A stretch of DNA of 58,292 nt. Origin: a virus (lineage: Duplodnaviria; Caudoviricetes). The DNA lies in the IMG/VR virus record IMGVR_UViG_3300030328_005013, positions 1 to 58,292 of that record; one strand, written 5' to 3'. The position numbers were made by a program, and so were the translations under genes. Positions 3,278 through 47,715 of the stretch are shown here, piece after piece. Positions within the stretch are counted from its first letter, which is position 1. The number at the start of each line of letters is the position of its first letter. The notes beneath the pieces were generated by a model. That model worked only from the letters and a program-made list of their open reading frames with translations. It ran no database searches and was not told the origin of the DNA.

Positions 3278-4243
3278 TCATCCACCCTTGGGTTTAGGCT
3301 TGGGTTTTGGCTCTGTCTCTGGCTCTGGCTCTGTTTCTGAGCCTTTGGCTCTTTGAACCTGATCCTCAGTAGGAGCACCTTTTTCCCCTTTTTTCCTCAT
3401 TTTTTCCCCAGAACCCCTCTTGATTCTCTCTCTTTTCTTTCTGATATTCTCCCAGAGACTGCTATCAGATTTCTCTTTTTCTTTTAGAATCTCCTTGTGA
3501 CGCTTCATAAAAGCTTCATGGTTAGGTCCAGCCATGTAAAGAGTCTTGCCTTCCTCTGTTTTATGAGTATGAACTCCTTTCAAACCCATCTTTTCAGCAT
3601 CTTTCATAGCTTTCTCTTTGCTATCAAAGTAGTGGTCCTTTTCATCTGGAGATCCATAGGAATATTTTTTCTTTTTATCTCCGTAGGCAGCTTCAGAAAC
3701 TTCAGCTAAAGCGGGACATTCTCTAAGCAAATCTTCATGGTCAAAAAAGGTCTCACCATCCCACTCATAATCTTCAGAACCTTTTGTCATATTTGTAACA
3801 CTCTTCTTGCTCCACATTTTACAAGACCAGTATCTAGCCTTCCATTTAGGACCAGCGTTATCGCAATTATGACGACTTCTAAAAGCCTTCCTTCTTTTTG
3901 GGTCGTCTCTCTTAATTTCCATATTGGGGTCGCCAAAGTTGACCTTAACCACGTTTCCTTTTTCGTTTTTTACATAAACAGAGAACTTTTTCGGACCCTT
4001 TGGGGTTCTAAACGGCTTATTTAAAGTTTTATTTTCGTTCGCAGATTCTGAGAAGAATAAAGTAGTATCCTCCCCATCATCAAAAACAACAGATGCTTTG
4101 GACTGAGCATCTTTAAATATATTCATACAAACAGCTACCCGCTGTTTATTATCGTTAAATTCTTTTTTGTCAGTTAAGTCTGATACGCAGCGACCAACAA
4201 AATCACTGCGCTTCTCATTATTTCTTGGAGTGGGCAATGGCAT
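3278..4243 (-). CDS. Basic, modular phage protein (DUF6321-like central domain)
   Basis: N-terminal MPLP..FVGRC...QRVAVC module; VYVK...KVNFGDPNMEIKRDDPKRRKAFRSRHNC...ARYWSC module; LWENIRKKRERI..GAPT module; EP/KP tail. Confidence 0.7.
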   Translation of the reverse strand: MPLPTPRNNEKRSDFVGRCVSDLTDKKEFNDNKQRVAVCMNIFKDAQSKASVVFDDGEDTTLFFSESANENKTLNKPFRTPKGPKKFSVYVKNEKGNVVKVNFGDPNMEIKRDDPKRRKAFRSRHNCDNAGPKWKARYWSCKMWSKKSVTNMTKGSEDYEWDGETFFDHEDLLRECPALAEVSEAAYGDKKKKYSYGSPDEKDHYFDSKEKAMKDAEKMGLKGVHTHKTEEGKTLYMAGPNHEAFMKRHKEILKEKEKSDSSLWENIRKKRERIKRGSGEKMRKKGEKGAPTEDQVQRAKGSETEPEPETEPKPKPKPKGG

Positions 4244-4251
4244 ATTTTTGT

Positions 4252-4257
4252 TTACAC
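4252..4257 (-). promoter_or_regulatory. GTGTAR upstream motif
   Basis: GTGTAA 8 nt before ATG 4243. Confidence 0.5.
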
Positions 4258-4790
4258 TACAAAAGTTCCATAGGGGAACGATATTCTTCGTATGGTAAGA
4301 ACCAATGTTCGCAGGTATTTAGTATATCATACAGTAAAACAGTGGTCATTAAGTCCTCTCTACCCTTCCTCGTATATCCTTTATACAGGGAGTCTTTGAA
4401 ATTTGAGACCTTTTTAGTCCAGTCACAAGTGTGAGCGAGATCAAATAAGTCGTCATTTTTAACACATAAAAAGAAAGCCCCATAGTCGAATGCTATCCAT
4501 GCTGGCTTTTGTTCGCCATTGCACCAGCCCATTTTCCCTTGCACATTCTTTATTTCTAAGACGACTTTACCTTCTTTTTGGGTTTGTTTCAGCCCTTTTA
4601 CGTCAAATCCTACGCCATCAACTACAAAATCAGTATGATTTTTTATATCATCGTGCTGACTGGTTTTCTTTATTTCTTTTCCCGCTGCTCTACAAGAATC
4701 GTAGAATCTTTGTTGACCTTCATGGCCAATATTTATTGATTTTTTAATATGCCCAGCAGATGACATATTTTTAGCTTTGTCTGATATCAT
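4257..4790 (-). CDS. Putative PD-(D/E)XK-fold nuclease
   Basis: HTDFVVDGVGFDVKG fits the D...(D/E)xK pattern. Confidence 0.55.
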   Translation of the reverse strand: MISDKAKNMSSAGHIKKSINIGHEGQQRFYDSCRAAGKEIKKTSQHDDIKNHTDFVVDGVGFDVKGLKQTQKEGKVVLEIKNVQGKMGWCNGEQKPAWIAFDYGAFFLCVKNDDLFDLAHTCDWTKKVSNFKDSLYKGYTRKGREDLMTTVLLYDILNTCEHWFLPYEEYRSPMELL

Positions 4791-5128
4791 AAAGTCATTG
4801 ATTTTGTTTCCCCTGTCCTCACATCTGTCATGAAAAAATCCCTTACATTAAATGCCTTGTCGTCTATCCAGTAATCATATGGTGGTTTACCCATTCTTAA
4901 CTCTGTCCTCTTCACCCCCCATTGGTCTAGTTGTTTTTTAGTCAACTCGCTATGATCTACTCCACTATTACCTCCTCTAGCAGTCCAATAAATTATTGTA
5001 TGTCCAGCATCATATAATTGATTAAAAAAATCTATTCTTTCTTTTATTGGTTTCCCTCTGCTATACGGAGTTGTGCGGCTATCGTGTCTACAAATTGTGC
5101 CATCAATATCTACAATGTAAGTTTTCAT
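4787..5128 (-). CDS. Small capless HAD-family phosphatase (EcbF/BcbF-like)
   Basis: VDIDGTIC motif I, YWTAR motif II, MGKP..YWIDDK motifs III/IV. Confidence 0.85.
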   Translation of the reverse strand: MKTYIVDIDGTICRHDSRTTPYSRGKPIKERIDFFNQLYDAGHTIIYWTARGGNSGVDHSELTKKQLDQWGVKRTELRMGKPPYDYWIDDKAFNVRDFFMTDVRTGETKSMTL

Positions 5129-5619
5129 TTTATTTTTTTAATAATATTTGAAGTGCTAGCACCCTCTAAAAGAGGCACTATTCTTACGGCGCTGTTGCCT
5201 TTGGCTTTTAATTCTCTTTTATTTAAGTCCTCTAATTTATAATCCCCTCCTTTGAACCAGAAATCAGGTTCCAGTTCTTTTAATTGTTTTGATACTGTTT
5301 TCGTATCATAAATAAAAACATAATCAACAGCTTCATGACAAGCTACGGTATATGCTCTCTGAGCAGCAGGAATTATTGGGCGACTATCTCCTTTTAGGGA
5401 TTTTACGCTTTTATCGCTATTTACTCCCACAATCAATCTTGAATTGTTACTAGAAGATTCTTTTATAGTGTTTAGTAAATAAGCGTGTCCTGTATGGAAT
5501 AAATCAAAACACCCATTTGTGAAGGCTATAAATTTTTTAATACCGAAAGATTCCATCTGACGAAATTGCTCTCTCTCTTTTAAGATATCTCCAAAAGTAA
5601 ATATTTTTTTATGCTTCAT
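5125..5619 (-). CDS. hldC: Heptose-1-phosphate adenylyltransferase (HldE/RfaE domain II-like)
   Basis: FTNGCFDLFHTGH, LIVGVNSDKSVKSLKGDSRPI, KGGDY, EGASTS; start moved to ATG 5619 (ATGA overlap). Confidence 0.85.
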   Translation of the reverse strand: MKHKKIFTFGDILKEREQFRQMESFGIKKFIAFTNGCFDLFHTGHAYLLNTIKESSSNNSRLIVGVNSDKSVKSLKGDSRPIIPAAQRAYTVACHEAVDYVFIYDTKTVSKQLKELEPDFWFKGGDYKLEDLNKRELKAKGNSAVRIVPLLEGASTSNIIKKIK

Positions 5620-6362
5620 ACTGTCGCGACTCCTTTCTTTCTTATAACCTTTTGGCAGCAATCTTGAGCAAATATAATGGCTGTATTAATTTTTTTGGTA
5701 GAAGTAAATGCATAAGAAAACCCAGCCAGAAAGGTGTCTCCTGCTCCAGAGACATCTCTTATTTCAGAGGGATATTGTATAGCGTAATCTTTATATTTGT
5801 AAGAACAACCTTTTTCTGCTTTTGTTACAATTATATTTTCTGCCATATGTTTCCATCCGTTTTCTAAATATTCCTTTTCATTTATTTTTATAAACGTAAA
5901 TGAATCTGCCCAGTCAATATTGAATTGTTTTTTAGTGTCTAAAAAAGAAAGCCTACTCCTCTTAGCTATTTCCTGAAGATCTGAATCTTTTAGGAATCCT
6001 TTATCGTAATCTGAAACTACAACTGCATCATATTCTTCTATGTTTTCTGGAAGTTCGCCACAATGAGTGTAGCTATCTGTATCTACTCTTAGAAACATTT
6101 GGTTTGATGTCGAATCAATATACCTTGTTTTGTGACCGTTTGCCTCGTTCGTAAATAAATCAATAGTATTGTCAAACGGTATATCTTTTGTGGTTTCTTT
6201 TTCTATGGCTACAAGGTTATTATAAACATTTGTTGCCATTCCTAGATTATTTATACCCTCGCTAGGTATAAATACAGGAGCAGGGGCTTCAGGGCATAGA
6301 CGATCAGCTTTGCCGTAGCAAAACCTATCACTACAAGTTTCTCCTATTACTAGAAACTTCAT
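5616..6362 (-). CDS. hldA: Heptose-7-phosphate kinase (HldE/RfaE domain I, PfkB family)
   Basis: RLCPEAPAPV, VVSDYDKG and DVSGAGDTF motifs typical of the HldE kinase. Confidence 0.85.
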   Translation of the reverse strand: MKFLVIGETCSDRFCYGKADRLCPEAPAPVFIPSEGINNLGMATNVYNNLVAIEKETTKDIPFDNTIDLFTNEANGHKTRYIDSTSNQMFLRVDTDSYTHCGELPENIEEYDAVVVSDYDKGFLKDSDLQEIAKRSRLSFLDTKKQFNIDWADSFTFIKINEKEYLENGWKHMAENIIVTKAEKGCSYKYKDYAIQYPSEIRDVSGAGDTFLAGFSYAFTSTKKINTAIIFAQDCCQKVIRKKGVATV

Positions 6363-6730
6363 TGAGAGGCACCCTTTTCTACTCTATAAGAATCTTCGTT
6401 AAAATGTTGAGTGCTGACCTCAAAAACATGAGCATCCTCTAAAGCGGTTAACTTATGGGGTATACAGGGCTTCAAGTGAACCACATCACCCTCCACTAAT
6501 TCTTTCTCTAGCCTTTCAGCTTTCTCTAGATCAAAATATTCTAACTTTAGTTTGCCCTGAGTAACGCACCAAGTTTCTTCTTTTCTTATGTGATAATGCA
6601 TAGAAAAGGATGAACCCTTCTTGAATCTCAATATTTTACCACAATATTTTTCATTGTTGGTAATCCACAATTCATCACCCCAACCCTTAGGGTGTGGTTC
6701 TAAGCGACTAAAGCAAGGCTGTATACTCAT
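6359..6730 (-). CDS. Cupin-fold protein (phosphosugar isomerase-like)
   Basis: PKGWGDE, SMHYHIRKEETW, PHKL, FEVST...DSYR. Confidence 0.8.
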   Translation of the reverse strand: MSIQPCFSRLEPHPKGWGDELWITNNEKYCGKILRFKKGSSFSMHYHIRKEETWCVTQGKLKLEYFDLEKAERLEKELVEGDVVHLKPCIPHKLTALEDAHVFEVSTQHFNEDSYRVEKGASQ

Positions 6731-6737
6731 TCAGAGT

Positions 6738-6765
6738 ATTATAGCCTTGTTTATGTAATATTCAA
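6738..6765 (-). promoter_or_regulatory. Sigma70-like promoter, probably giving a leaderless mRNA for the heptose cassette
   Basis: TTGAAT-N16-TATAAT-N7-ATG. Confidence 0.65.
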
Positions 6766-6770
6766 GGAAA

Positions 6771-6959
6771 TTATTCCCCTTTATCTTTGCTTTTACCGAT
6801 ATTTAAAGCAGCCCAATCAATAAGTGAGTAGACTTTAGCCCAAAAAGTTCCCTTTTTAGGAGTGGGAGTTGCTGCGGTAATAGCAGAGGCGAGAGCAACA
6901 GCAGAAGCTACTACACCCCACCAAGGATTGTCCTGAATCAATTGAATAATTGTGTCCAT
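6771..6959 (-). CDS. Small membrane protein, holin-like
   Basis: Hydrophobic helix WWGVVASAVALASAITAATPTP then IDWAALNIG, a pattern seen in small phage membrane proteins. Confidence 0.55.
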   Translation of the reverse strand: MDTIIQLIQDNPWWGVVASAVALASAITAATPTPKKGTFWAKVYSLIDWAALNIGKSKDKGE

Positions 6960-6985
6960 AGTAAATTATATGCCTTTTCTATATA

Positions 6986-6991
6986 TTACAC
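6986..6991 (-). promoter_or_regulatory. GTGTAR upstream motif
   Basis: GTGTAATATATA 26 nt before ATG 6959. Confidence 0.5.
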
Positions 6992-7011
6992 TACTCAAAT
7001 TTTGAGGGGAA

Positions 7012-7902
7012 TTATATTCTAGTATACGAATAAGTCCTTCCCATGTCGTATTTTAAAGTATTAAAATACTGCCAACCAAAATCCACCCATGTATTAAACT
7101 CACTAAAACCACTGCTTAATGGGTCAAAACTAGCAGAGTGGAAACAAGGCGGTTCATTTGATTCTTTCATTATTATTTTCTTAGCTATATGAGGATAGCA
7201 ATTAGCTATATGGATAGGGCCGCTATTTATTCCAATAAAAATAGAACTTTCTGATATGGTTTTTACTGTATCCCAAATTTTCAAGCCTCTCTTATCTGTA
7301 AAAGGAGACGAGTTATCTGTTTTTGCGCCCACTTGTATTATATTGTAATTAGCATACCTTTTAGCTATAGTTTGCAATACTTCGTCGGGTATGAATTGTA
7401 ATTTACAATTATTACTTGGCCCAACATGTATTGTTATTTGGTCTGGCTTAACACCAAGGGGGTCTTCGTGTTTATATAAACGTGGACCTCTTGGTAAACA
7501 TAGATCAGGTCTTGTCCAGTCTTGTATGCCTAGCGTTTTATAAAACCATCGAGACCTACTATAGCACCCCAATTGATTTGGAGGGTGCCATAAGTTAATT
7601 ATTTTAGTTTTTTGACGGGGTGTCGGAACTTCAACTGGCTCAACCCAATCGTGAGGCTTGCAATACACAGCGGGATACCCGTCAATATTTTCATTAGTTT
7701 CAGCATTTTTAAAACGCAAAGGTCTTATTTCATCTGGGTGAAAAAGTCTGCGAACGTATGGATTTCTATCAAAAACCCAACATCTATGAACATCTATTAA
7801 TTTTACTCCATACCACTTATAAAACGCTTCGGGTATGCAAGAGTATTGAACCTTGTCACCAATTCCTACTGCTCCCCTTAAATCTATACCTATATTTTTC
7901 AT
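7012..7902 (-). CDS. GT9-like (heptosyltransferase-fold) glycosyltransferase
   Basis: N-terminal GIGD; C-terminal IIQVG...IFIGINSGPIHIA resembling the GT9 DSGxxHxA motif. Confidence 0.7.
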   Translation of the reverse strand: MKNIGIDLRGAVGIGDKVQYSCIPEAFYKWYGVKLIDVHRCWVFDRNPYVRRLFHPDEIRPLRFKNAETNENIDGYPAVYCKPHDWVEPVEVPTPRQKTKIINLWHPPNQLGCYSRSRWFYKTLGIQDWTRPDLCLPRGPRLYKHEDPLGVKPDQITIHVGPSNNCKLQFIPDEVLQTIAKRYANYNIIQVGAKTDNSSPFTDKRGLKIWDTVKTISESSIFIGINSGPIHIANCYPHIAKKIIMKESNEPPCFHSASFDPLSSGFSEFNTWVDFGWQYFNTLKYDMGRTYSYTRI

Positions 7903-8195
7903 TAAGACAGATCCAAAGAATCAGGAGCGATTTCCTCTAACTCTTCACATATTCTATCTATCTCATCAGGCATCATGTGCCTAGCGCAGTTCCTAAGCTT
8001 TGTCACCTCCCACTCAAACTTGCAGAATTTATCATCTTGAGTTATATTTTTCTTTTCTTTGCTATCGTAAATAAATGTGTCGAAAACCTCGTATCTTAAA
8101 GGGTCGATGCATTTTTCGATAGGATCGAATGTGGAGCGACTAGTGACATAATCAAAGATGTCATACCTACTTACTTTAATTTTGACTTTTTGCAT
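7902..8195 (-). CDS. Hypothetical protein
   Basis: 97-aa ORF coupled to GT9; upstream TAGACT-N17-TATAAT. Confidence 0.65.
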   Translation of the reverse strand: MQKVKIKVSRYDIFDYVTSRSTFDPIEKCIDPLRYEVFDTFIYDSKEKKNITQDDKFCKFEWEVTKLRNCARHMMPDEIDRICEELEEIAPDSLDLS

Positions 8196-8239
8196 TAGAG
8201 TCTAATATACGAGATTATATATTAGATTTTAGAAAAAGT

Positions 8240-8860
8240 CTAGACAATCCTAATTCTGCTCCTGATTTTTGAAACGTGCCTTTTCTTTTCTAAGACAGAG
8301 CCGCCCTCCCTGCTTCCAGCACCGTTTGTGTTACCTTCAATAGTAACTACATAACCACTTGAGTCTGCGTCTTTTACAGCTAATCCAATATGAGAAAAAG
8401 TAAATACAACGATATCACCTGCTTTAATATCTTCGTTTGTAGGTTTGCGGAGTTCCACGCCTTTTGTGCTTTCTTGTTTAGCCCAGTTCTCAAAATCCCA
8501 AGCTCCAGCGGTTCTCGGTCTTTTGAATGCTACATCCTCTCCTTCAATAGCCTCTCTAACTAACCAGCAAATAAAAGCAGCGCACCAAGGCCAACCTTTG
8601 TCTGCGTCTAGCCATGTGGCAGCTTTGTATTCATCTACTCTTGGCCCACAATTACTGCCGTCAACTTCGGAGACTCCTATTTCTTCTCTCGCTAAGGACA
8701 CCATTTTCTCTGCTACACTCCCACCAGAAGCAGCAGGTTCTTTGGTCGATAGCTTTGCTAAAATAGCATTCCAAGTTACAGGACCATCGGCACCATCAGC
8801 AGAAACCCCGAGAAGCTTCTGCACTGCTTTTACTACTTCTTTCTTGCCTCTAAAATTCAT
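8240..8860 (-). CDS. Endolysin: peptidoglycan-binding domain plus CHAP catalytic domain
   Basis: VQKLLGVSADGADGPVTW (PG-binding), PWCAAFICW (catalytic Cys), SHIGL (His), TIEGNT; start ATG 8860 (TAATG overlap). Confidence 0.9.
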   Translation of the reverse strand: MNFRGKKEVVKAVQKLLGVSADGADGPVTWNAILAKLSTKEPAASGGSVAEKMVSLAREEIGVSEVDGSNCGPRVDEYKAATWLDADKGWPWCAAFICWLVREAIEGEDVAFKRPRTAGAWDFENWAKQESTKGVELRKPTNEDIKAGDIVVFTFSHIGLAVKDADSSGYVVTIEGNTNGAGSREGGSVLEKKRHVSKIRSRIRIV

Positions 8861-9465
8861 TACCCACACCTCCTACTAAACCCAGCACATATTGACATAA
8901 CAACTGATAATACGATAGCTAAAATCATAAAGTCGCTGTATTCTTTAATTTTAATGTTTAATAAATCAGACTGTTCCTCATTATAATACATTTTTGTATC
9001 CATAATATTGTTGATCGCACCAATTGTAGGGTCAGTCATTTCATACATTTTAGGAACTGATGACTTAATCATTTCAATATTATTTGTGTTACCCCATTCA
9101 ATTAATTGGTTAACATAGATATTTATTTTCTTCTCTTGCTCAAAAACAAACTCAGCATACTCTACTTCTTTAGGCGTTATATCTTTTTTATAACCTTGTA
9201 AATACTCATCCTTATACACCCTCTCTTCTTCTAAAATTTCTACCATTTCTGCGGGTGTGATTACTCCATGAGAAGTTTTTACTACTGAGTTTACTATAAT
9301 TACTCCATACCAATCAAAGCACATGCCTATTTCCATAATGGAAGACTCTGATTGTCGAGCATTCTCTTTTAGTGTGTTTTGAATATCTTCCGTAAGGCTT
9401 AACCCTTTGAAGCCAAAGGCTAAACAAATAGCGGCTAAACAGTATACAATAAACTTTGGTCTCAT
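8860..9465 (-). CDS. Two-TM membrane protein with a chemoreceptor-like (4HB_MCP/Tar-type) periplasmic domain and no cytoplasmic signalling domain
   Basis: TM1 FIVYCLAAICLAFGF, TM2 FMILAIVLSVVMSICAGF; segments YGVIIVNSVVK, YKKDITPKE and MYEMTDP..AINNIMD recall 4HB_MCP sensor domains. Confidence 0.6.
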   Translation of the reverse strand: MRPKFIVYCLAAICLAFGFKGLSLTEDIQNTLKENARQSESSIMEIGMCFDWYGVIIVNSVVKTSHGVITPAEMVEILEEERVYKDEYLQGYKKDITPKEVEYAEFVFEQEKKINIYVNQLIEWGNTNNIEMIKSSVPKMYEMTDPTIGAINNIMDTKMYYNEEQSDLLNIKIKEYSDFMILAIVLSVVMSICAGFSRRCG

Positions 9466-9779
9466 TTTTTAAGAAATTTTTCTGGGTTCTTAGCAAATTT
9501 TTCGCCCATTCTTACTATCCCACTAATAACCTCTGGGCTTATTACGCCAATAATACCGTAAGTAATCGCCTTAGTTAAAGATGATACGTCAGTTTGTTCT
9601 AAAACAAACCAAGCAATGCCAGCAGCTAGGGCCGCTGTAATCACCCTTTTAAACTGTTGTTTAAGCGTTAATCCATTATTACCTGATAAGAGCCTAGCAA
9701 ACATCGCAGCAGCGCCTACAAGCGGGACTAACCAACCTCCACTGAGGAATTCTTTGATTAAAGACTTTTCAGGTTCCAT
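9462..9779 (-). CDS. Holin (LydA-like, about 3 TM)
   Basis: 105 aa, three hydrophobic segments, basic C-terminus, first gene of the operon ending in the endolysin. Confidence 0.7.
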   Translation of the reverse strand: MEPEKSLIKEFLSGGWLVPLVGAAAMFARLLSGNNGLTLKQQFKRVITAALAAGIAWFVLEQTDVSSLTKAITYGIIGVISPEVISGIVRMGEKFAKNPEKFLKK

Positions 9780-9790
9780 GTAATTACATT

Positions 9791-9796
9791 CTACAC
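9791..9796 (-). promoter_or_regulatory. GTGTAR upstream motif
   Basis: GTGTAG 11 nt before holin ATG, directly after a terminator. Confidence 0.55.
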
Positions 9797-9827
9797 AAAA
9801 AAAGCCACCCGTGCAGGTGGCTTTTTT
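9797..9827. terminator. Bidirectional intrinsic terminator
   Basis: aaaaaagccacc-cgtgca-ggtggctttttt. Confidence 0.85.
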
Positions 9828-9852
9828 ATTTTATAATTAAAAGTAATTTAAA

Positions 9853-10545
9853 TTAGAACTTGTAAGAGACTCCTGCTCCGACAGACCACTCGTTATCTAA
9901 GCTATATGCGCTAGAAGAATCGAGGTCATTGTCGTTATAAGCGCCTTTTACAAAAACAGAAGCACCGTCTGTAATTTTATAAGCAGCAGCTAGACCTGCC
10001 TCAAGAGCAGTGTATTCATCAGCAAGATTAAGTCCGACAAAAGGTGTCAACACAAGACCTTCTACTGGAGTAGCAATGTCGCGAGAGAGAATGAACTCTA
10101 CGCCATAAGAGCCACCAGAACCTCCTCCAACTTCATGCCATGCAGTTGCTGTAAGATCTGCAAGAGTATGGCTATAAGTAAGACCCACTCCAACTTCGTC
10201 CCAGCCTCCAAAGGAAGAATCAACCCTTTGAAAATAAAACTCAGCCCCGAGGTCTTGGCCAAGAAGAGTAACCCCCCTTGAGTAAGCAAGGGAGATGTCT
10301 TGTTCGTATCCCTCGTCAACGTCAAAGATGTCGATACCGACAGAAGCAGTGCCTCCAGCTTTTACTGGGGCAGAGAGTGTAAGTGAATAACTAAAAGCGT
10401 CATCCCTAATGCCAACTCCTCCGCTAGTCGAAAGAGTGCTATATGAAACACCACCTTCTACAGAGACATCTGCCAAAGTGGTTGCTTTAACTGCGCCAAC
10501 CATAGCAGCGCCCATAAGTAGTGTTGTAAGAATAAGTTTCTTCAT
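9853..10545 (-). CDS. Outer-membrane beta-barrel protein
   Basis: Sec signal peptide (MKKLILTTLLMGAAMVGAVKA), alternating amphipathic strands, C-terminal beta-signal VGAGVSYKF. Confidence 0.85.
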   Translation of the reverse strand: MKKLILTTLLMGAAMVGAVKATTLADVSVEGGVSYSTLSTSGGVGIRDDAFSYSLTLSAPVKAGGTASVGIDIFDVDEGYEQDISLAYSRGVTLLGQDLGAEFYFQRVDSSFGGWDEVGVGLTYSHTLADLTATAWHEVGGGSGGSYGVEFILSRDIATPVEGLVLTPFVGLNLADEYTALEAGLAAAYKITDGASVFVKGAYNDNDLDSSSAYSLDNEWSVGAGVSYKF

Positions 10546-10551
10546 GAGATT

Positions 10552-10580
10552 AATATATATTACAGAATTGTAATGGTCAA
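10552..10580 (-). promoter_or_regulatory. Sigma70-like promoter, probably leaderless
   Basis: TTGACC-N17-TATATT-N6-ATG. Confidence 0.65.
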
Positions 10581-10608
10581 GGGAAAAATTATCCAGAAAT
10601 AAGGAAAA

Positions 10609-10824
10609 TTAAACAGCTTCTACAGCCTCTAGAGGCTCAGCAAATTCAGGGCTAACCTCCTGTGTGATAGGAGTGTTATCAATGCCTCTGGCAGCTTGCT
10701 TGATTTTAGTGGCTAACACTAATGCGTTTTGTGCTACATTTAGTCCTTGTGCTCTTACGGCTACATCTAAAAGGCCAATAAGTGCATTCATTTCCTCGTC
10801 GGAGAATTCGATTGTAGTATTCAT
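10609..10824 (-). CDS. Hypothetical protein
   Basis: 71-aa ORF; upstream TTGATT-N16-TATAAT. Confidence 0.7.
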   Translation of the reverse strand: MNTTIEFSDEEMNALIGLLDVAVRAQGLNVAQNALVLATKIKQAARGIDNTPITQEVSPEFAEPLEAVEAV

Positions 10825-10857
10825 ATATGCAATATTATAAATTAATAATACAAAAAA

Positions 10858-11142
10858 TCAAGGCCAAGTTACAAAATGTGTTTGGCCTGTATAGGAATAT
10901 CCTGCGTTGTATGGAGCCAGAAATAAACCTGTGGTTTCCCAGATGCCAGACATTATGTCAACCTTCCTGTTATACTCCCTCATATCATGATACGCCAAAT
11001 CCATACCCTCAAATCCTGTGATACCAGATCCACTTAAGAAACGCCCTGTCAATTCAGCACGATAAACCTGCCAAACCCCACTACCTGTAGCTGTTTCGGA
11101 GTGGATTTGACCTCTAAGTGGACTGCCTTCTTGATATGCCAT
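10858..11142 (-). CDS. Small (S/T)G-rich probable virion protein
   Basis: 9 TG/SG dipeptides in 94 aa; GTGTAG upstream. Confidence 0.6.
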   Translation of the reverse strand: MAYQEGSPLRGQIHSETATGSGVWQVYRAELTGRFLSGSGITGFEGMDLAYHDMREYNRKVDIMSGIWETTGLFLAPYNAGYSYTGQTHFVTWP

Positions 11143-11151
11143 TACTAGAAT

Positions 11152-11157
11152 CTACAC
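11152..11157 (-). promoter_or_regulatory. GTGTAR upstream motif
   Basis: GTGTAG 9 nt before ATG 11142. Confidence 0.5.
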
Positions 11158-11167
11158 TTAAAAGTGT

Positions 11168-11437
11168 TTATTTCCCGCTAGGAAAATAAAGCTGTCTCTC
11201 TAAGCGTCTAAATCTAGCATCAGAATGCCAGACTTCATTTTGTTGTGGAGTATAGATTCCTTTACTTGTCTCGATTGGAGTCCCTTTTGTCAAACTGAGA
11301 GTAGAAGGCTGATAGATGTTTAAAGGAGTTGTCTTCACGGATGAGTTCGTCGCGCAAGAGATCAGCACGGTCGGGATCACCGCCAATAGCCCTAATATTC
11401 TCAAGTTCTTGAATAATTCTTTCTCTTTCTTCTTCAT
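11168..11437 (-). CDS. Lipoprotein, putative o-spanin (Rz1-like)
   Basis: Basic N-terminus, hydrophobic stretch, lipobox LIS-C, Pro/Thr-rich mature part; overlaps the upstream ORF in another frame. Confidence 0.6.
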   Translation of the reverse strand: MKKKEKELFKNLRILGLLAVIPTVLISCATNSSVKTTPLNIYQPSTLSLTKGTPIETSKGIYTPQQNEVWHSDARFRRLERQLYFPSGK

Positions 11438-11528
11438 GGTCTCTTTTTAATTGTAAATAGAAAGTCTTATTTTTTAAAGATAAAAATAACTCAATTGATT
11501 TTAAAACAGATTTAATTAAGGAAAGCAT
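11262..11528 (-). CDS. Putative i-spanin (Rz-like)
   Basis: Amphipathic N-terminus plus charged helical region, overlapping the lipoprotein gene by 176 nt. Confidence 0.45.
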   Translation of the reverse strand: MLSLIKSVLKSIELFLSLKNKTFYLQLKRDHEEERERIIQELENIRAIGGDPDRADLLRDELIREDNSFKHLSAFYSQFDKRDSNRDK

Positions 11529-12357
11529 CTATGTTCTCTTCTACATAATCCTCTACACTTTTCCAGTTATATTCGCCGATTATTTCGGTAATTTTAGAAT
11601 TATCAGCTTTAGTTAATTTTTGATATTGGCCTTTCAGTTCTTTCGGCATTGGTATTTGTTTTATACTACAATTGCATCGTGATTTAATTATTTCTGCTAC
11701 ATCTCTAAAAGAAATAGCATTTCCTGTCCCTATATTAAAAACACCTGAAGCATCTGAGTTTAAAAGCTTTACATGCATTTCGCAAACATCTTCAACAGAA
11801 ACAAAATCTCTTTTATATTTCTCACTTTTATCAAAAATTTCTATCTCGCCACTCCTCTGGGCTTGGTTAATAAACTTAGAGACAGGACTAGCTTGCTTGC
11901 CTTTTTTATCTTCCCCCAATCCATAAACATTAAAATACCTTAATCCTTGGTAGGGGTAATCTTGATTCATTAGCCAACAATCAAAGATGTATTTACTAAA
12001 TGCGTATGGGCTAAGTGGTTTACAGAAATCAGTTTCTTTAAAGGTTTTGGAATCACCATAAACAGAGCCACTGCTAGCATATTGAAACTTAACGTCATAA
12101 CCCTCACATAACTCGTAAAGCATTACTGAAAACTCAAAATTCTGTTTTAGAATTTTTTTAAGGTCTTTTTCCGTAGTTGATGAATTTGCCCCCAAATGTA
12201 TTACGACATCTTGACTGCCTACATCGGGAATTGCATTTGGATCGCCTTTATTTATGTCAAATCTTGTAACATCGTATCCACGATGTTCCAAGTATGAGCA
12301 CAAATTGCCACCTATGAACCCTCCAGAGCCTGTTACTAGTATTCTATTCAGAGTCAC
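11512..12357 (-). CDS. hldD: ADP-L-glycero-D-manno-heptose 6-epimerase-like SDR
   Basis: VTGSGGFIG, HLGANSSTTE, YASSGSVYG, YAFSK, LRYFNVYG..E..KG..AS; probable GTG start at 12357. Confidence 0.85.
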   Translation of the reverse strand: MTLNRILVTGSGGFIGGNLCSYLEHRGYDVTRFDINKGDPNAIPDVGSQDVVIHLGANSSTTEKDLKKILKQNFEFSVMLYELCEGYDVKFQYASSGSVYGDSKTFKETDFCKPLSPYAFSKYIFDCWLMNQDYPYQGLRYFNVYGLGEDKKGKQASPVSKFINQAQRSGEIEIFDKSEKYKRDFVSVEDVCEMHVKLLNSDASGVFNIGTGNAISFRDVAEIIKSRCNCSIKQIPMPKELKGQYQKLTKADNSKITEIIGEYNWKSVEDYVEENIDAFLN

Positions 12358-12832
12358 AATCGCAATCTTCTTCGCAATCCGAAGTGCATTCTTCTTCTTT
12401 TGGAGAGGGTTGTTTAAAATCTGCGAGCTTAGGCATCTTATCAGATAAACCAAAAATCTCAGCAATTTTTTCCATTTTAAAGTCCGAGGCTTTTATTTCA
12501 TTTAAAAGCCTGTCAAGCTCTTCCTCTCCTGTTTCCTCTATTTCTGCTTCTGCAAAGTAATTAAAGTTATCAGAAAATTGTATATTTTCAATTAATTCAA
12601 CAACAAGCTCATCACCTTTAAAGGATTTTTGAATTGAATAAGAAGAGTGTGTTCTGGAATATTGATCTCGCAGATTGCTTTCTCCCAAGTCTACTTCTCC
12701 TCCAGCCTTTCTATATTCTTTTAAAACCCAGACTTTTTTGCTGTATTCTGAGGCTTCAGGGAATTGCATATCTGCGTCAAAGGATAAGCTTTGACGCAAT
12801 TTGTCATCTAGGAACGTAACAGTGTAAGGCAT
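12344..12832 (-). CDS. Hypothetical protein with acidic Cys-rich tail
   Basis: Ends EEECTSDCEEDCDCDSE; GTGTAA upstream. Confidence 0.7.
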   Translation of the reverse strand: MPYTVTFLDDKLRQSLSFDADMQFPEASEYSKKVWVLKEYRKAGGEVDLGESNLRDQYSRTHSSYSIQKSFKGDELVVELIENIQFSDNFNYFAEAEIEETGEEELDRLLNEIKASDFKMEKIAEIFGLSDKMPKLADFKQPSPKEEECTSDCEEDCDCDSE

Positions 12833-13301: not shown

Positions 13302-13469
13302 TTAATCTTGGTTATCAAATCGACCTTCCATTTTCTTCCAGAAAACTTCTGGTCCGAGAGCATTATACTGCGACTTCAATCGCTTGTAAAGGTTTTTTTG
13401 GATTGGATTGGCATTTTTTTTGTCATATCCAATTAATCTACGGATTTTTTTAGCTACTGAACCACTCAC
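13302..13469 (-). CDS. Small basic hypothetical protein (55 aa, not in ORF track)
   Basis: GTG start overlapping the Clp stop (GTGA): MSGSVAKKIRRLIGYDKKNANPIQKNLYKRLKSQY...; fills the operon gap. Confidence 0.65.
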   Translation of the reverse strand: MSGSVAKKIRRLIGYDKKNANPIQKNLYKRLKSQYNALGPEVFWKKMEGRFDNQD

Positions 13470-15814
13470 GCAATATCATCGCCTTTTGTTTGTTTTTTGT
13501 CAACAAAAAGTTTTATATTTTTGTCTCCTTTTAAAGTTTTATCAGATATATATGGTGTTATTTGTGATAATATCTTTTTATTTAAGGCTTCTGTTTTGTT
13601 TTTAGCTTTGCAAATTTGCTCAGTAACCCTCTTTATATAATCAAAATCAAAGTTTAGATAAATATCATTATCTTCTAACCTGTTTTTTAGTCTTTTTAAT
13701 TTCATCCACAACAGTCTCCGTAGATCTTTTTCAGTGAGTTCTTTTAGGATAAAATAATCATCTATTTGTGATAAAAGCTCTGGGTGAATCATTAGATTGT
13801 TTTTACCTTCACCTGCTGCTTGAAATCCCATAGAGGATTGGCTGCTTGACAGAGAGCATGTCAAAAATATTTTACAGTTTGAAAAATCTGCGATATCCCC
13901 ATTGGTCATTTGGAACCTCCCATGCTTGAAGATTTGACTGAAAATAGCGATTGAGGAGTTGTCTATCTTGTGAAAGTCATCAATAATTAAAACGCTATTA
14001 GGGGTGATATTTATTTTTTCACATATTGATGTATTTGTTCCCTGCGAAGAAGCTATTTTATGTGGAGCGAAATTATCGGAAAAATGCACACCACTGTAAG
14101 ATAAAACATTTATACCTCTTTTTTGAAGAGAGTCTTTTAGCAAGTCTAGAAAATAAGACTTACCGCTAAAACTAGAACCACTAACTACAAAGCAATCAGG
14201 TGATGAAAAATTATCAGATTTTTTTAATCCTAAACCAGAGAGAATTAGTTTTTCTTTAAGATTATTTAAGAAATCTCTTTGACCAACTAAGCTTTTAGAT
14301 AAGCATTTAAATAACTTGTCTATAGTATCTTTGTTGCTTAATGGGTTCTTCTTTTTATCAAAGAAATCTTTTAAATGCTTAAGTTTTACTATAGGTGTTT
14401 TATCCTCAACCCCTTCTGTCCATTTCTCTAAGCTGGCATTTAGCTTTTCTAGTAATTCTGCGTGATCTTTCTCAGGGTCAAGCGCGGCCTTAACTGTCTC
14501 AGTTTGTATGGCCTTTATCGAAGGTGTAACGTGCCAAAAATTAACTTTAGCTTGAGCACCACAATGATCAATTACGTCTATAGCTTTATCTGGGTAAAAC
14601 TTATTGGGGATATATTTTTCACAATATTCTATTATATTATTTAAGAATCTATCACTATACTCAACTGCATGAAACTCTTCGTAATATGATACAATAGTTG
14701 GAAGGATTTCTTCCATCTGGAATTTAGATGGTTCTTTAATTATAACTCTCTCAAACCTCCGATCTAATGCAGTATCTTTTTTTATCGTATTTGTATATTC
14801 ATTAATTGTTGTAGCGCCTATGCAACTTATTGTGCCTCTAGCAAGTTCTGGTTTGAGTATATTAGAAGCTTCTAGTGAATTATTTGTCGCTCCTCCTGCC
14901 CCTATTAAGGTGTGAACTTCGTCTATGAAGAGAATTAAGTTTGAGTATTGTTTAGCTTCATTAACAAAATCCTCTAATCTTTTCTCAAACTGCCCTCTGT
15001 ATTCAGTGCCAGCGACCATGCTAGATAAACTAACAGAGTATATTACTTTATTTGCTATAAGTTCTGGAGCATCTCCAGCAACTATTTTAGCCGCTAACCC
15101 TTCTACTAGAGAAGTTTTTCCCGTTCCCGCTGGGCCTACCAATATTGCGTTCGGTTTTTTCTTTCGACAAAGAATCGTAGCCAGTTCATCAATTTTCCCA
15201 TCGAAATCAACAATCTTATCAAACTCCTTATTTAAAGCTTTTAAGTTTAAGTTTTCTGCAAATTGACACAAAATTGGATTCTGCTCAAACATGTCTATCC
15301 AGTGTTCTGGAGTTTCGACATCTGCTTCTAAAGGACCAAAGGTGTCATCAAATTCAAGATCTTTTATTCCTAAGGAACATTCTGTTATGAACCCTAAAAC
15401 TGTAGCGTCTGATTTATCGTCTTTTTCAGGGTAAAGCTCTTTAATTACTTTAGGAGAATGAACATTATCAAAAAAAGTCATTAAGATTATTTCTGGGGGA
15501 ATATAATCTAAGTCAAAGCTTTCTTCAGCTATGCCTTCAGCAGTTGCTAAAAGTTTTCTAACATCTGTTTTTACAGTTCTTTTTACATTTTTATTTTCTC
15601 TTTTTTTACTTAAGCAATGCCTAGATTCTTTGAGCCATTCTTTTGGATCTATATGAACCCTCTTGAAAATAGAAGAGCAAGAAAGACTTAAATCGCTTAA
15701 GAAGCAGTGAAAAAATAAATCAATGTCTACCCCATTCCTTTTTAAGATGACGGATAGGTCTTGAGATTTTTCTAAAACTCCCTCTATGTGGGGTGTCAAA
15801 GGAAGTTTAGTCAC
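13466..15814 (-). CDS. ClpA/ClpC-like AAA+ ATPase
   Basis: Clp N-domain-like start; D1 GPAGTGKT, AGTEYRGQFE, LFIDEVH, ALDRRF; PDKAIDVID; divergent D2 with SMGF loop. Confidence 0.9.
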   Translation of the reverse strand: MTKLPLTPHIEGVLEKSQDLSVILKRNGVDIDLFFHCFLSDLSLSCSSIFKRVHIDPKEWLKESRHCLSKKRENKNVKRTVKTDVRKLLATAEGIAEESFDLDYIPPEIILMTFFDNVHSPKVIKELYPEKDDKSDATVLGFITECSLGIKDLEFDDTFGPLEADVETPEHWIDMFEQNPILCQFAENLNLKALNKEFDKIVDFDGKIDELATILCRKKKPNAILVGPAGTGKTSLVEGLAAKIVAGDAPELIANKVIYSVSLSSMVAGTEYRGQFEKRLEDFVNEAKQYSNLILFIDEVHTLIGAGGATNNSLEASNILKPELARGTISCIGATTINEYTNTIKKDTALDRRFERVIIKEPSKFQMEEILPTIVSYYEEFHAVEYSDRFLNNIIEYCEKYIPNKFYPDKAIDVIDHCGAQAKVNFWHVTPSIKAIQTETVKAALDPEKDHAELLEKLNASLEKWTEGVEDKTPIVKLKHLKDFFDKKKNPLSNKDTIDKLFKCLSKSLVGQRDFLNNLKEKLILSGLGLKKSDNFSSPDCFVVSGSSFSGKSYFLDLLKDSLQKRGINVLSYSGVHFSDNFAPHKIASSQGTNTSICEKINITPNSVLIIDDFHKIDNSSIAIFSQIFKHGRFQMTNGDIADFSNCKIFLTCSLSSSQSSMGFQAAGEGKNNLMIHPELLSQIDDYFILKELTEKDLRRLLWMKLKRLKNRLEDNDIYLNFDFDYIKRVTEQICKAKNKTEALNKKILSQITPYISDKTLKGDKNIKLFVDKKQTKGDDIA

Positions 15815-18365: not shown

Positions 18366-18979
18366 TACAGATCCATGTGCTTCTTAAGTTTAAGAAAAAT
18401 TTGATAACACATCTTAATATCGTAAAGAGCGTTATGTAATTTACTCTCGTCAAACTCTATATCAAAAAACTTTAGAAGTTGGTTTTGAGAAACCTTTGCT
18501 TTAAGGCTTCTATCATTAATTATCTTATATTGCCAACTCAGCAAGTTTCCTTTAGGTCTTTCTAGTTCCTCTCTGTAAGCCTTCCCTAAAGCCCTAGTGT
18601 CTAAAATACGAGGCAAGTAAGAATACTCTGGTTCTTGACCCAATAACCTTTGTAGCACAGCAAGCATGTAAACATCGAAGCCTAGAAGGTTTTGTCCCAC
18701 TACAATGTATTGAGGGTCAAATATATACTTTTCAAACTTGTTCCAAACCTCGTCTAATGGTTTAGCTTTTCTGTTATAAGTGTCCCAATTAAAACCTGTA
18801 ATCTTCTTGACTACTTCGGGAATATTCAATTCTTTGTGGATTATAAACTCGTCATGAGTTTCTAATATTTTATTTCCCTGACAAACTATCCAAGATAGCT
18901 GCCATGTTTTAGAAGAGAATAAATTTAAACCTTCTGTTTCAGTATCAAATACTAGATATTTTTGGTTACTTGGCAACAT
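18365..18979 (-). CDS. DEDDh 3'-5' exonuclease (DnaQ-like proofreading subunit)
   Basis: FDTETEG, GQNLLGFD, LHNALYD. Confidence 0.9.
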   Translation of the reverse strand: MLPSNQKYLVFDTETEGLNLFSSKTWQLSWIVCQGNKILETHDEFIIHKELNIPEVVKKITGFNWDTYNRKAKPLDEVWNKFEKYIFDPQYIVVGQNLLGFDVYMLAVLQRLLGQEPEYSYLPRILDTRALGKAYREELERPKGNLLSWQYKIINDRSLKAKVSQNQLLKFFDIEFDESKLHNALYDIKMCYQIFLKLKKHMDL

Positions 18980-19664: not shown

Positions 19665-19673
19665 TCCTGCACT

Positions 19674-26498: not shown

Positions 26499-26506
26499 TT
26501 TAATTA

Positions 26507-27169: not shown

Positions 27170-27219
27170 TTTTAAATTTAATTATATTAATAATGAAATG
27201 TTTAAATGTCAAATATACT

Positions 27220-44904: not shown

Positions 44905-46594
44905 GAAGCTAAAAGTTTTAGTTCACTCTAATCATTCTAGGTTAGTCACTGGATTTGGCAAAAACGCAAGAAATATATTACTTGGTCTGAATGAAGATCC
45001 AGACATAGAGGTAATAGAAGCGGCAAACGGGCCAAGATATGGCACTGATTTGATGACACCTTGGGAATCTTATGGGACACAACCTATAAATTCTTCATTG
45101 ATACAAGCCATTCAAGGAGATCCCGCTAAAGAAAGAGGTGCTGGATATGGGTTTTATACCATAGATCAAATTATAGATGAATGCAAGCCAGATATATATC
45201 TCGGCATTGAAGATATATGGGCTTTCGGGGGCTACGAACACAAGCCTTGGTGGAATAAAATAAATAAAGTTCTTTGGACAACCTTGGATAGTTTGCCGAT
45301 TTTAGATCAAGCCTTACAAATGGAACCTCATTGTGATAAGATGCTAGTTTGGGCATCTTTCGCAGAGGAAGAAATGAAAAGACTAGGTTATAAAAATGTA
45401 GAGACTCTTCACGGTGCTGTAGACTATACAAACTTTAAACCTCTTGATAACAAAAAAGAGCTAAGAGAAAAATTTAACCTTCAAGATAATTATGTAATTG
45501 GATTTGTTTTTAAAAATCAGCTAAGAAAATCTGTCCCAAATCTTTTAAGAGGATTTAAAATTCTAAAAGAAAAAAATCCAGACTTAAAACCTAAATTGCT
45601 TTTGCATACAGATTGGGGAGAAAGGGGCTGGGATATTCCTAAATACATAAAAGAACTAGAATTAGATCCTAGTGATATTCTATCCACTTACGTTTGCCAC
45701 GCTTGTGATCATTATTCAGTCTTACCATATGAAGGTGAGGACAAAAAATGCCCAAGTTGCAATGCAGAAAAATCTTTTAAAACCAAAACAAGCTCTAAAG
45801 GAGTGGGGGAAAAAGAATTAAATGAAATTTATAACTTAATGGATGTTTATTGCCACCCATTTACCAGTGGTGGTCAAGAACTTCCAGTGCAAGAAGCTAA
45901 AGCCGCTGGGCTGATAACTTTAGTCACAGAATATTCCTGTGGGACAGACTCTTGTTATGAACATCAAGGAGGAATTCCGCTAAAATGGAATGAATATAGA
46001 GAGCCTCATACTCAGTTTATTAAAGCTTCCACATGTCCCCACGACATAGCTCAACAGTTGCAAAAAGTTAGCAGAATGAGCGATGATGATAAATTTATTC
46101 TATCAAATAAAGGAACCAAGTATGTAAAAGAAAAATTTTCCGTTTCAGCCACTGTCGAAAAGCTTAAAAAAATTCTTCTTGATCTTAAAAAACCCACTAA
46201 AGAAGAACAAGAAGAAAAAGCTACTGAACAACCACTAATGCTTAATGATGTTCTTGGCGATGAGGGCCAAGAAAACAGAATAGCAGTTGTGCTGCCAGAG
46301 TCAGCGGGAGATATACTAATATTGAATTCTCTAATGGATAACCTCAAAAAACTTTATCCAGAAAAAAACATATATGTATTCACTAAACCTGAGTTTTACC
46401 AAATGATTGATGACAATCCAAATGTGCATAAACTTCTACCATATCAACAATCTTTAGATAACTTGCTTTACTTAGAGGGAAGAGCAGACCACGAAGGCTT
46501 CTTTCAGATGGCATTTTTACCAAACATTGGAACTCAAAGACATCTTAACTATCTTCACAATGGAGAAGATAAAATACAATTTCAATTAACATGA
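44891..46594 (+). CDS. GT4 glycosyltransferase with zinc-ribbon insert, fused to a GT9 N-terminal domain
   Basis: TGFG, NQLRKS, CHAC..CPSC, PFTSGGQELPVQEAKAAG; C-terminal PESAGDILILNSL..NLKKLYP...NPNV. Confidence 0.8.
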   Translation: MSRSKKLKVLVHSNHSRLVTGFGKNARNILLGLNEDPDIEVIEAANGPRYGTDLMTPWESYGTQPINSSLIQAIQGDPAKERGAGYGFYTIDQIIDECKPDIYLGIEDIWAFGGYEHKPWWNKINKVLWTTLDSLPILDQALQMEPHCDKMLVWASFAEEEMKRLGYKNVETLHGAVDYTNFKPLDNKKELREKFNLQDNYVIGFVFKNQLRKSVPNLLRGFKILKEKNPDLKPKLLLHTDWGERGWDIPKYIKELELDPSDILSTYVCHACDHYSVLPYEGEDKKCPSCNAEKSFKTKTSSKGVGEKELNEIYNLMDVYCHPFTSGGQELPVQEAKAAGLITLVTEYSCGTDSCYEHQGGIPLKWNEYREPHTQFIKASTCPHDIAQQLQKVSRMSDDDKFILSNKGTKYVKEKFSVSATVEKLKKILLDLKKPTKEEQEEKATEQPLMLNDVLGDEGQENRIAVVLPESAGDILILNSLMDNLKKLYPEKNIYVFTKPEFYQMIDDNPNVHKLLPYQQSLDNLLYLEGRADHEGFFQMAFLPNIGTQRHLNYLHNGEDKIQFQLT

Positions 46595-47715
46595 GCCATC
46601 TAGCAGAAGAATACGCCAAATGCTGTGGGGTTAAAATAGGAAAACCTGTTTTAAAACCTCACTATTTTCCTGTTCTTTACGATAAATATATAACAATACA
46701 TAACGATAAAAAAGTCCAAGCAAAAGAGTATGACATGTGGCCCGATGTAATTAAAATACTTAAAAAGTATTTGGGTGACATAAAAATTATACAAATAGGA
46801 GCGCAAGGAGAAGAAACAATACAAGGCGTAGATAAACACATGCCTACAGCATCTCTTAAGCAGTCTTCTTATATTATAGATAAAGGATTAGGTCATTTAG
46901 GTATAGATAGTGTGCCAGTTCACATCGCTTCAGCCTTAGATAAACCAGTTGTTGGCATTTATGCACATACTTACGCGAATACATGTAAACCTTTATGGAA
47001 TGATAAATCAAAATCAATACAAATTGAATCTCACAGAAATGGAAGAAAACCTTCTTTCTCTTTAGAAGAGCACCCAAAAACAATCAACCTGATTAAACCA
47101 GAAGAAATAGCCCAAGCTGTGCTTGACGTATTAGATATAAATAAAACAGTAACACATAAAACTATTTTTATTGGTGATCACTATACTTCTAACTTTGTGG
47201 AAGTAATTCCATCTCAGCCAACCACCGTTCAAGCCCCCTTAATTGATGTAAGAATGGATATTTGCCATAATGAAGAAGTGCTCGGTGGAATTCTAGGAAG
47301 AAATGATGTGGAAGTAACTACAAATAAACCCATTTCGCTACCTCTATTAGATACAAGAAAAATTAAAAAAATTGTTTACAAAAGCGATTTTTTTGATGTA
47401 GATTTTTGCGAAGCTGTAAAAAGTAGAGCAATACCAATTTCTTTAGAATGCAGGTCTTCAGATCATCTAAAAAAACAAAGAGCCAGACTTTTTGATTGTA
47501 TGATAAATTTATTAGATGAGAACGAGATAATAAAAAAGAATAAAAAAAGATTACCCGAAGAAGATCTTGGAAAAATAAACATTGCGAGTAACAAAAAAGT
47601 TGTTTGCGGAGATGAGATTTATGAAAGCATATATCATTTGAATGATAAAAAAAATTCAGACGATTTTTATCTTGATTTAGATTTTTATAGAGTTTATACT
47701 GATTCAAATGAGTGA
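46591..47715 (+). CDS. GT9 C-terminal domain-containing protein
   Basis: YITIH, KEYDMW, IIQIG, HLGIDSVPVHIASALDKPVVGIY. Confidence 0.75.
   Translation: MSHLAEEYAKCCGVKIGKPVLKPHYFPVLYDKYITIHNDKKVQAKEYDMWPDVIKILKKYLGDIKIIQIGAQGEETIQGVDKHMPTASLKQSSYIIDKGLGHLGIDSVPVHIASALDKPVVGIYAHTYANTCKPLWNDKSKSIQIESHRNGRKPSFSLEEHPKTINLIKPEEIAQAVLDVLDINKTVTHKTIFIGDHYTSNFVEVIPSQPTTVQAPLIDVRMDICHNEEVLGGILGRNDVEVTTNKPISLPLLDTRKIKKIVYKSDFFDVDFCEAVKSRAIPISLECRSSDHLKKQRARLFDCMINLLDENEIIKKNKKRLPEEDLGKINIASNKKVVCGDEIYESIYHLNDKKNSDDFYLDLDFYRVYTDSNE

Follow-up and report, generated by a model that had tools for sequence, protein, structure and literature searches.

We analysed a 58,292-base stretch of DNA from an uncultured marine phage (Duplodnaviria; Caudoviricetes), hereafter the window, which is the entire IMG/VR record IMGVR_UViG_3300030328_005013, and identified in it a compact minus-strand operon encoding a small cupin, a PfkB kinase, a nucleotidyltransferase and a small HAD protein. 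From comparisons of sequences and gene neighbourhoods, we consider it rather probable, though well short of assured, that this operon leads from sedoheptulose 7-phosphate to ADP-glycero-beta-D-manno-heptose with neither GmhA nor GmhB, the cupin being the isomerase. ADP-heptose is a building block of the Gram-negative lipopolysaccharide core and a potent innate immune agonist, and its biosynthetic pathway has been treated as fixed, consisting of GmhA, HldE, GmhB and HldD. The window gave no match to SIS_2 (PF13580), a result that applies to this incomplete record only, and none to the GmhB model TIGR00213 at E 0.01, in agreement with the first-pass annotation of this DNA, which had seen neither a SIS-fold GmhA nor a canonical GmhB there. 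Nor does SIS_2 match any of four incomplete records (completeness 21-57%) from close relatives. Because CheckV places the record at about 43% of the genome, the absence of gmhA and gmhB holds for the record and not for the rest of the genome, and the "complete phage route" of that annotation cannot be claimed.

Five minus-strand open reading frames (ORFs) are joined by four ATGA start/stop overlaps (6362-6359, 5619-5616, 5128-5125 and 4790-4787), which suggests that the genes of the operon are translationally coupled. In order, they encode the cupin (123 amino acids, 6359..6730), a candidate metal-dependent sedoheptulose-7-phosphate isomerase in place of GmhA; a short PfkB kinase of the HldE domain-I type (248 amino acids, 5616..6362), a candidate heptose-7-phosphate 1-kinase; a nucleotidyltransferase of the HldE domain-II type (164 amino acids, 5125..5619), a candidate heptose-1-phosphate adenylyltransferase; a capless HAD of the AfhF / EcbF-BcbF type (113 amino acids, 4787..5128), a candidate heptose-1,7-bisphosphate 7-phosphatase in place of GmhB; and a protein of 177 amino acids (4257..4790), whose ORF forms the fourth overlap with the HAD gene and has no significant Pfam, NCBIfam or PHROG match. 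The first-pass annotation had described a chain of four genes linked in this way; all four are found on the minus strand where it placed them, and the overlaps can be read in the sequence, but it omitted the fifth ORF and began the nucleotidyltransferase at TTG 5661, whereas we place the start at ATG 5619, overlapping the kinase stop. Its single promoter corresponds to a sigma-70-like match, TTGAAT-16-TATAAT (6738..6765, minus strand), which agrees with 10 of 12 consensus positions and lies directly 5' of the cupin start codon. Promoter-like sites in the region are no more frequent than in shuffled sequence (15 observed, 14.5 expected), and we therefore describe the site as a consensus match only. 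The hldD gene that it reported about 5 kb away is present as an HldD-like short-chain dehydrogenase/reductase (SDR) gene (11512..12465, minus strand), 4.8 kb from the cupin and a candidate for the ADP-glycero-manno-heptose 6-epimerase.

In the proposed route, the His-His-Glu-His metal site of the cupin would isomerise sedoheptulose 7-phosphate to D-glycero-D-manno-heptose 7-phosphate, the short PfkB kinase would phosphorylate C1, the capless HAD would remove the 7-phosphate, the nucleotidyltransferase would add AMP, and the HldD-like SDR would epimerise C6''. The GT9-like transferases of the phage would then transfer the heptose to the host envelope or to virion proteins. The observed basis of this route consists of gene order, family membership, conserved catalytic residues and the distribution of the genes across genomes. 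The five steps up to the nucleotide sugar are those of the bacterial ADP-L-glycero-beta-D-manno-heptose pathway, which uses GmhA, HldE (or HldA and HldC), GmhB and HldD, with GT9 transferases downstream. The phage kinase, nucleotidyltransferase and epimerase are homologous to HldE domain I, HldE domain II and HldD, respectively, and the GT9-like transferases have bacterial counterparts too. However, the phage kinase is shorter than that of bacterial HldE and separate from the nucleotidyltransferase, and the cupin and the capless HAD stand in the places of GmhA and GmhB.

The family assignments of these homologous enzymes are consistent with heptose chemistry. The kinase exceeds the Pfam cut-off for PfkB (51 bits), conserves a GAGDTF motif, matches phrog_8133 (E 1.5e-63) and has rfaE_dom_I (TIGR02198) as its best NCBIfam model, at E 3e-29, with the next-best family far behind at 4e-8. 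Likewise, the SDR matches the HldD model TIGR02197 at E 5e-67, compared with E 2e-22 for GalE. Two GT9-like proteins were found in the window. One, of 374 amino acids (46591..47715, plus strand), scores 35.3 bits against a cut-off of 22 for PF01075, a match reproduced by a six-frame search, and is a likely user of ADP-heptose. The other, a more distant relative of 296 amino acids resembling heptosyltransferases (7012..7902, minus strand), lies upstream of the operon. It has no direct PF01075 match itself, but 2 of 33 homologues match this family, an Atlas search provides a supporting lead, and hhalign aligns it to GT9 with a probability of 97% (E 8e-11), spanning 62 columns only. Against PDB sequences, its family profile found no match and the single sequence found one at chance level. 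GT9 enzymes use ADP-heptose, and the HldD reaction depends on a secondary alcohol at C6, such as a heptose has; the GT9-like transferases together with the HldD-like SDR thus point to a heptose as the probable product. The nucleotidyltransferase exceeds the cut-off of PF01467 (CTP_transf_like, 58 bits), and its best NCBIfam model is rfaE_dom_II (TIGR02199, E 6e-40). In its (F/L)xxGRSTT motif the fifth residue is Ala, which, by the rule given in a commentary (PMC11573728), suggests that it would use ATP rather than a broad range of nucleoside triphosphates.

Between the distant GT9-like gene and the cupin lies an ORF for 62 amino acids (6771-6959) with a hydrophobic stretch and a weak PHROG match only.

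The first-pass annotation also proposed that the small HAD is the bisphosphate phosphatase, and this has become a well-supported inference. General HAD family matches of the protein are weak, and its TIGR01689 score is 23.6 bits (cut-off 162). The four HAD motifs nevertheless remain intact, with D7, D9, T11 (DxDxT), T49, K81, D89 and D90 invariant in 30 homologues, which places the protein in the HAD superfamily. Its closest solved relative is AfhF of phage HY126 (PDB 9iqw), at E 8e-10 and 36% identity, which is also the top Foldseek match; homology in sequence and fold to 9iqw and 1xpj makes it a member of the AfhF / EcbF-BcbF group. GmhB structures rank only 14th-20th by fold, with E values of 0.07-0.14. 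AfhF is a D-arabinose-1,5-bisphosphate phosphatase, and its pathway is described in PMC13326640: an isomerase forms arabinose 5-phosphate, which a kinase converts to the 1,5-bisphosphate; AfhF then takes off the distal phosphate, and UDP-arabinose, which serves to glycosylate 5-hydroxycytosine, is formed by a nucleotidyltransferase. The two systems share a capless HAD family and a logic of isomerase, anomeric kinase, distal phosphatase and nucleotidyltransferase. Because the AfhF pathway parallels the ADP-heptose pathway step by step, the assignment of the small HAD as a probable heptose-1,7-bisphosphate 7-phosphatase is well supported.

The kinship with AfhF also raises the idea that the cassette supplies a nucleotide sugar with which the phage DNA is hypermodified, which we regard as very improbable. 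In its favour, the nearest characterised relative of the HAD works in DNA modification, as that paper describes, and relatives of the HAD occur in 389 phage records, which by organism and host are mostly Escherichia and Acinetobacter phages. However, the AfhF pathway, as described there, handles a pentose, delivers its product onto DNA, and uses a SIS-type isomerase and a fusion of an APH kinase with a uridylyltransferase (AfhE), whereas the kinase and nucleotidyltransferase of the window are of the HldE type. No thymidylate-synthase-like hydroxylase matched among the 54 window ORFs scanned, and the GT9-like transferases and a large island of glycan genes point to glycan building instead.

Relatives of both small proteins carry misleading names in public databases. 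The HAD family is labelled "phosphoheptose isomerase" in phrog_1238 and in many RefSeq phage records, a name that our results do not support, the protein being a HAD phosphatase. In cyanophage P-SSM2, for example, the AfhF-type HAD (L001 6719-7063, PSSM2_311) bears this label in RefSeq. This name and the "cysteine dioxygenase" label of the cupin (phrog_7851), which our results do not support either, look like propagated errors.

The window cupin may act as GmhA does without belonging to that family. It exceeds the Cupin_2 cut-off (30.9 bits against 27.2) and gives weaker matches to Lyx_isomer and to the C-terminal domain of phosphomannose isomerase. Its His-x-His-x4-Glu motif and distal His (H45, H47, E52 and H92) are invariant in 30 homologues, as expected of a metal-binding cupin, and so are K15, K32, K50, E104, S106, T107, H109 and D113-S-Y-R116; the structure model has a pLDDT (predicted local distance difference test) of 93.5. 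Among these 30 family members, 28 match the phosphomannose-isomerase domain PF01050 at E 0.01 or better and 25 match D-lyxose isomerase, compared with one for FdtA and none for RmlC. A fused cupin domain in a Levyibacteriota genome (L158) passes the PF01050 cut-off with 28.7 bits. The small archaeal phosphomannose isomerases (PDB 7zvy and 7zvm), like the type II domain PF01050, are also single-domain metal cupins of about 110-125 amino acids; they align to the phage cupin with Z 15.1 and a root-mean-square deviation of 1.8 A across about 100 residues, and the reaction proposed for the phage cupin is the seven-carbon counterpart of theirs. Unlike type II phosphomannose isomerases, the phage cupin is set among heptose genes rather than with ManB and ManC. 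Searches against PDB sequences, with the single sequence or a profile, returned mainly oxalate decarboxylase and other generic cupins and were uninformative on function.

Gene neighbourhoods link the cupin to the heptose enzymes. The family has at least 594 members on viral stretches and 81 in cellular genomes, the latter including Patescibacteria, DPANN archaea, Planctomycetota and delta/Binatia lineages. We analysed the best 80 loci of each scan, calling ORFs and searching them with local profiles. Within 5 kb of the viral cupins, we found the kinase in 38 loci, the nucleotidyltransferase in 38, the small HAD in 28 and an SDR in 24; the corresponding counts for the cellular loci were 22, 20, 6 and 29, and a GmhB-like HAD occurred in 6 of the cellular loci. 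No GmhA was found within 10 kb of the cupin in any of the 160 loci (0/80 viral, 0/80 cellular). A kinase-centred viral scan, seeded with the kinase of a GmhA-type cassette, recovered the cupin in 49 of 80 loci and GmhA in none, and the cupin was present in 42 of the 49 loci that had the nucleotidyltransferase. Conversely, among 80 GmhA-centred viral loci, GmhA stood alone in 45, and the cupin was absent from all 11 in which both kinase and nucleotidyltransferase were present. One locus (L201) has the order kinase, small HAD, nucleotidyltransferase and GmhA, flanked by SDRs, so that GmhA occupies the position of the cupin.

In the Levyibacteriota genome, a candidate phyla radiation (CPR) bacterium, the operon consists of a GT2 gene, a kinase::cupin fusion, a nucleotidyltransferase::GmhB-like HAD fusion and an SDR, and GmhA had no match in this 1.2-Mb genome. 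A giant-virus contig (L061) encodes small-HAD::cupin as a single ORF. These two fusions tie the cupin to enzymes acting on sugar phosphates. When a set of 5.8 billion proteins was searched for longer, fused forms of the cupin, it yielded one protein of 220 amino acids without domain names.

Relatives found outside heptose cassettes also bear on the reaction type. Some ten cellular loci lack both kinase and nucleotidyltransferase and have the cupin directly 5' of the gene for GDP-mannose 4,6-dehydratase (gmd); four of these dehydratases were confirmed to exceed the TIGR01472 cut-off, and the adjoining cupins are about 48% identical to that of the window. In five of five such genomes, the ManC homologue spans positions 3 to about 351 of the 467 in the GMP_PMI model, indicating a ManC without its usual phosphomannose-isomerase cupin domain, and type-I ManA was absent from all five. 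The stand-alone cupin is thus likely to be the phosphomannose isomerase of these genomes. Stereochemically, the conversion of sedoheptulose 7-phosphate to D-glycero-D-manno-heptose 7-phosphate is the seven-carbon counterpart of that of fructose 6-phosphate to mannose 6-phosphate. The comparison favours a family of aldose-ketose isomerases that would act on manno-configured sugar phosphates.

The same relatives could mean that the window cupin is an ordinary phosphomannose isomerase feeding a phage Gmd pathway, or that the cassette activates a hexose, for example as ADP-mannose. We consider this improbable. It would account for the similarity of the family to PF01050, for the gmd-adjoining relatives in genomes without another phosphomannose isomerase, and for a Gmd-like gene (25521-26498), a GT11 gene and further sugar genes in the window, which, with its large island of glycan genes, weigh against the heptose-phosphate isomerase reading. 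On the other hand, the cupin stop overlaps the start of the HldE-type kinase, and in phages the cupin travels with the kinase, nucleotidyltransferase and HAD. The SDR partner is HldD-like, and its reaction would require the secondary alcohol that a heptose has at C6. The window also encodes two GT9-like transferases, and a scan of 54 window ORFs showed neither ManB nor ManC.

Several further observations weigh against the assignment of the cupin as a heptose-phosphate isomerase and against the pathway as a whole. The kinase (102 bits, cut-off 345), the nucleotidyltransferase (136.5 bits, cut-off 181.5) and the epimerase (226 bits, cut-off 274.6) all fall under their NCBIfam equivalog cut-offs. 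The window cupin itself scores 19.8 bits for PF01050, under the cut-off of 23.6, and its best NCBIfam model is WbuC, a CapF-like cupin, at E 5.5e-6. Fold comparison gives Z 15.8 for the CapF cupin domain, 15.1 for Thermococcus phosphomannose isomerases and 14.8 for D-lyxose isomerases, all within 1 Z, and fold searches, whether by Foldseek or Z-scored, do not separate an isomerase from a CapF-type epimerase. In addition, GmhA and a family cupin (E 1e-48) occur within 6 kb of each other in one phage lineage (L203 and L228). Of 20 cellular genomes that combine cupin, kinase and nucleotidyltransferase, 7 have a strong GmhA-like gene, compared with 10 of 60 other cupin-bearing genomes, so the scarcity of GmhA expected in cassette-bearing cellular genomes was not found. 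Finally, heptose genes are missing within 10 kb of the cupin in 35 of the 80 viral and 39 of the 80 cellular loci, and the cupin family is therefore not dedicated to heptose.

The two loci of that phage lineage (L203, 9899-15664; L228, 9935-15980) comprise GmhA, an HldE-type nucleotidyltransferase and the family cupin; a kinase was not detected by our profiles, and in L203 a 249-amino-acid ORF with no assigned family follows the nucleotidyltransferase.

An alternative is that the cupin is a nucleoside diphosphate (NDP)-ketosugar epimerase of the CapF/WbuC type, which would tailor ADP-heptose together with the SDR into a modified heptose; the isomerase would then be a host GmhA or the product of a gmhA in the 57% of the genome that lies outside the record. 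We regard this as unlikely but as a serious competitor. Cupins and SDRs tailor GDP-heptoses in Campylobacter capsules, and the 24 viral and 29 cellular loci counted above have an SDR no more than 5 kb from the cupin; the CapF cupin domain is moreover the top fold match and WbuC the best NCBIfam model, and GmhA does accompany the cassette in the seven cellular genomes and the one phage lineage. Yet the identity to the CapF domain is 19%. In CapF the cupin is joined to an SDR and its substrate is a nucleotide sugar; the fusion partners of the phage-type cupin are a kinase and a phosphatase. No SDR lies within 10 kb in 10 of the 27 viral loci that combine kinase, nucleotidyltransferase and small HAD. 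The bias of the family towards phosphomannose-isomerase over FdtA and RmlC models, the gmd-adjoining relatives in genomes without another phosphomannose isomerase, and the GmhA in the exact position of the cupin in L201 also speak against an epimerase. Most sampled picocyanobacterial genomes, furthermore, have no GmhA to lend. The proposal of the first-pass annotation that the cupin is the sedoheptulose-7-phosphate isomerase thus gains from its PF01050-like family, the fusions, the lack of GmhA neighbours and the exchange in L201, and loses from the fold tie with epimerases and the co-occurrence with GmhA. Its support comes from comparative genomics only, which makes an isomerase plausible while the epimerase alternative stays live.

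Related cassettes occur in known cyanomyophages. Their T4-GC 304-308 cluster, found in P-SSM2 (PSSM2_309-313), S-SM2, P-TIM68, S-CAM1 and S-T4, groups the same five families, namely the nucleotidyltransferase, kinase, small HAD, cupin and SDR, with 35-50% identity to the window proteins. Neither SIS_2 nor GmhB was found in any of five complete cassette-bearing cyanomyophage genomes. These phages differ in gene order from the present one, which encodes a DnaE-type polymerase and does not belong to the T4-like phages. In a sample restricted to the picocyanobacterial family, a GmhA-like gene was present in 19 of 81 genomes, suggesting that many such hosts could not supply the isomerase step.

In S-SM2 (L002) and P-TIM68 (L003), genes for a "transketolase central region" protein and a class II aldolase adjoin the cassette, together with more sugar genes. 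These neighbours might supply or alter the seven-carbon precursor.

Viral heptose-pathway enzymes that produce ADP-heptose were reported by Tang et al. 2024, as relayed in a commentary (PMC11573728), and rfaE or heptose genes are named as auxiliary genes of pelagimyophages and cyanophages in PMC7029224 and PMC7378029. Our literature search found no paper that links a cupin to the GmhA step, although Tang et al. 2024 or He et al. (HY126) may already assign the cupin. The cassette is a variant of a known pathway that is already present, mislabelled, in published phage genomes.

Extending the isomerase reading beyond this phage, we see about an even chance that small phosphomannose-isomerase-like cupins are a second, unrelated phosphoheptose isomerase, and that with the AfhF-type mini-HAD they form a route independent of GmhA and GmhB, apparently the commonest one among the sampled phage contigs and also present in CPR bacteria and DPANN archaea, through which phage GT9 enzymes would heptosylate the host envelope or the virion. 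If the cupin is indeed the isomerase, a well-studied reaction would gain a second, unrelated catalyst, and searches based on gmhA would be overlooking many phages, CPR bacteria and DPANN archaea that make heptose. The widespread database labels of the HAD and cupin would be corrected, and marine phages would appear to bring a self-contained heptose supply to hosts that mostly lack one.

The window contains further genes related to glycans. A large minus-strand island (25521-37931) comprises the Gmd-like GDP-mannose 4,6-dehydratase, which scores 400 bits against a TIGR01472 cut-off of 415, two FkbM methyltransferases, a radical SAM protein, a GT2, a DegT-like fragment, a GT11 of the fucosyltransferase family, a second SDR, a GT1/4 and several ORFs without an assigned family. 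Sugar chemistry in this phage seems to extend well beyond the heptose operon. Between the operon and the epimerase gene, the region 8240-9779 encodes an endolysin-like protein (PHROG endolysin families, E 2e-15) and, after it, two small proteins that contain hydrophobic stretches but match no family, and is likely to be a lysis module.

With respect to the identity of the phage, a megablast search of 4200-12500 against isolate phages gave no match, and the DnaE-type polymerase is less than 30% identical to any relative from an isolate phage, indicating a poorly sampled lineage. This polymerase, a DNA polymerase III alpha, belongs to a replication block (13466-23285) that also encodes a ClpB-like ATPase (phrog_4871), an RNase T-like exonuclease, a PD-(D/E)XK nuclease, a primase and a DnaB-like helicase.

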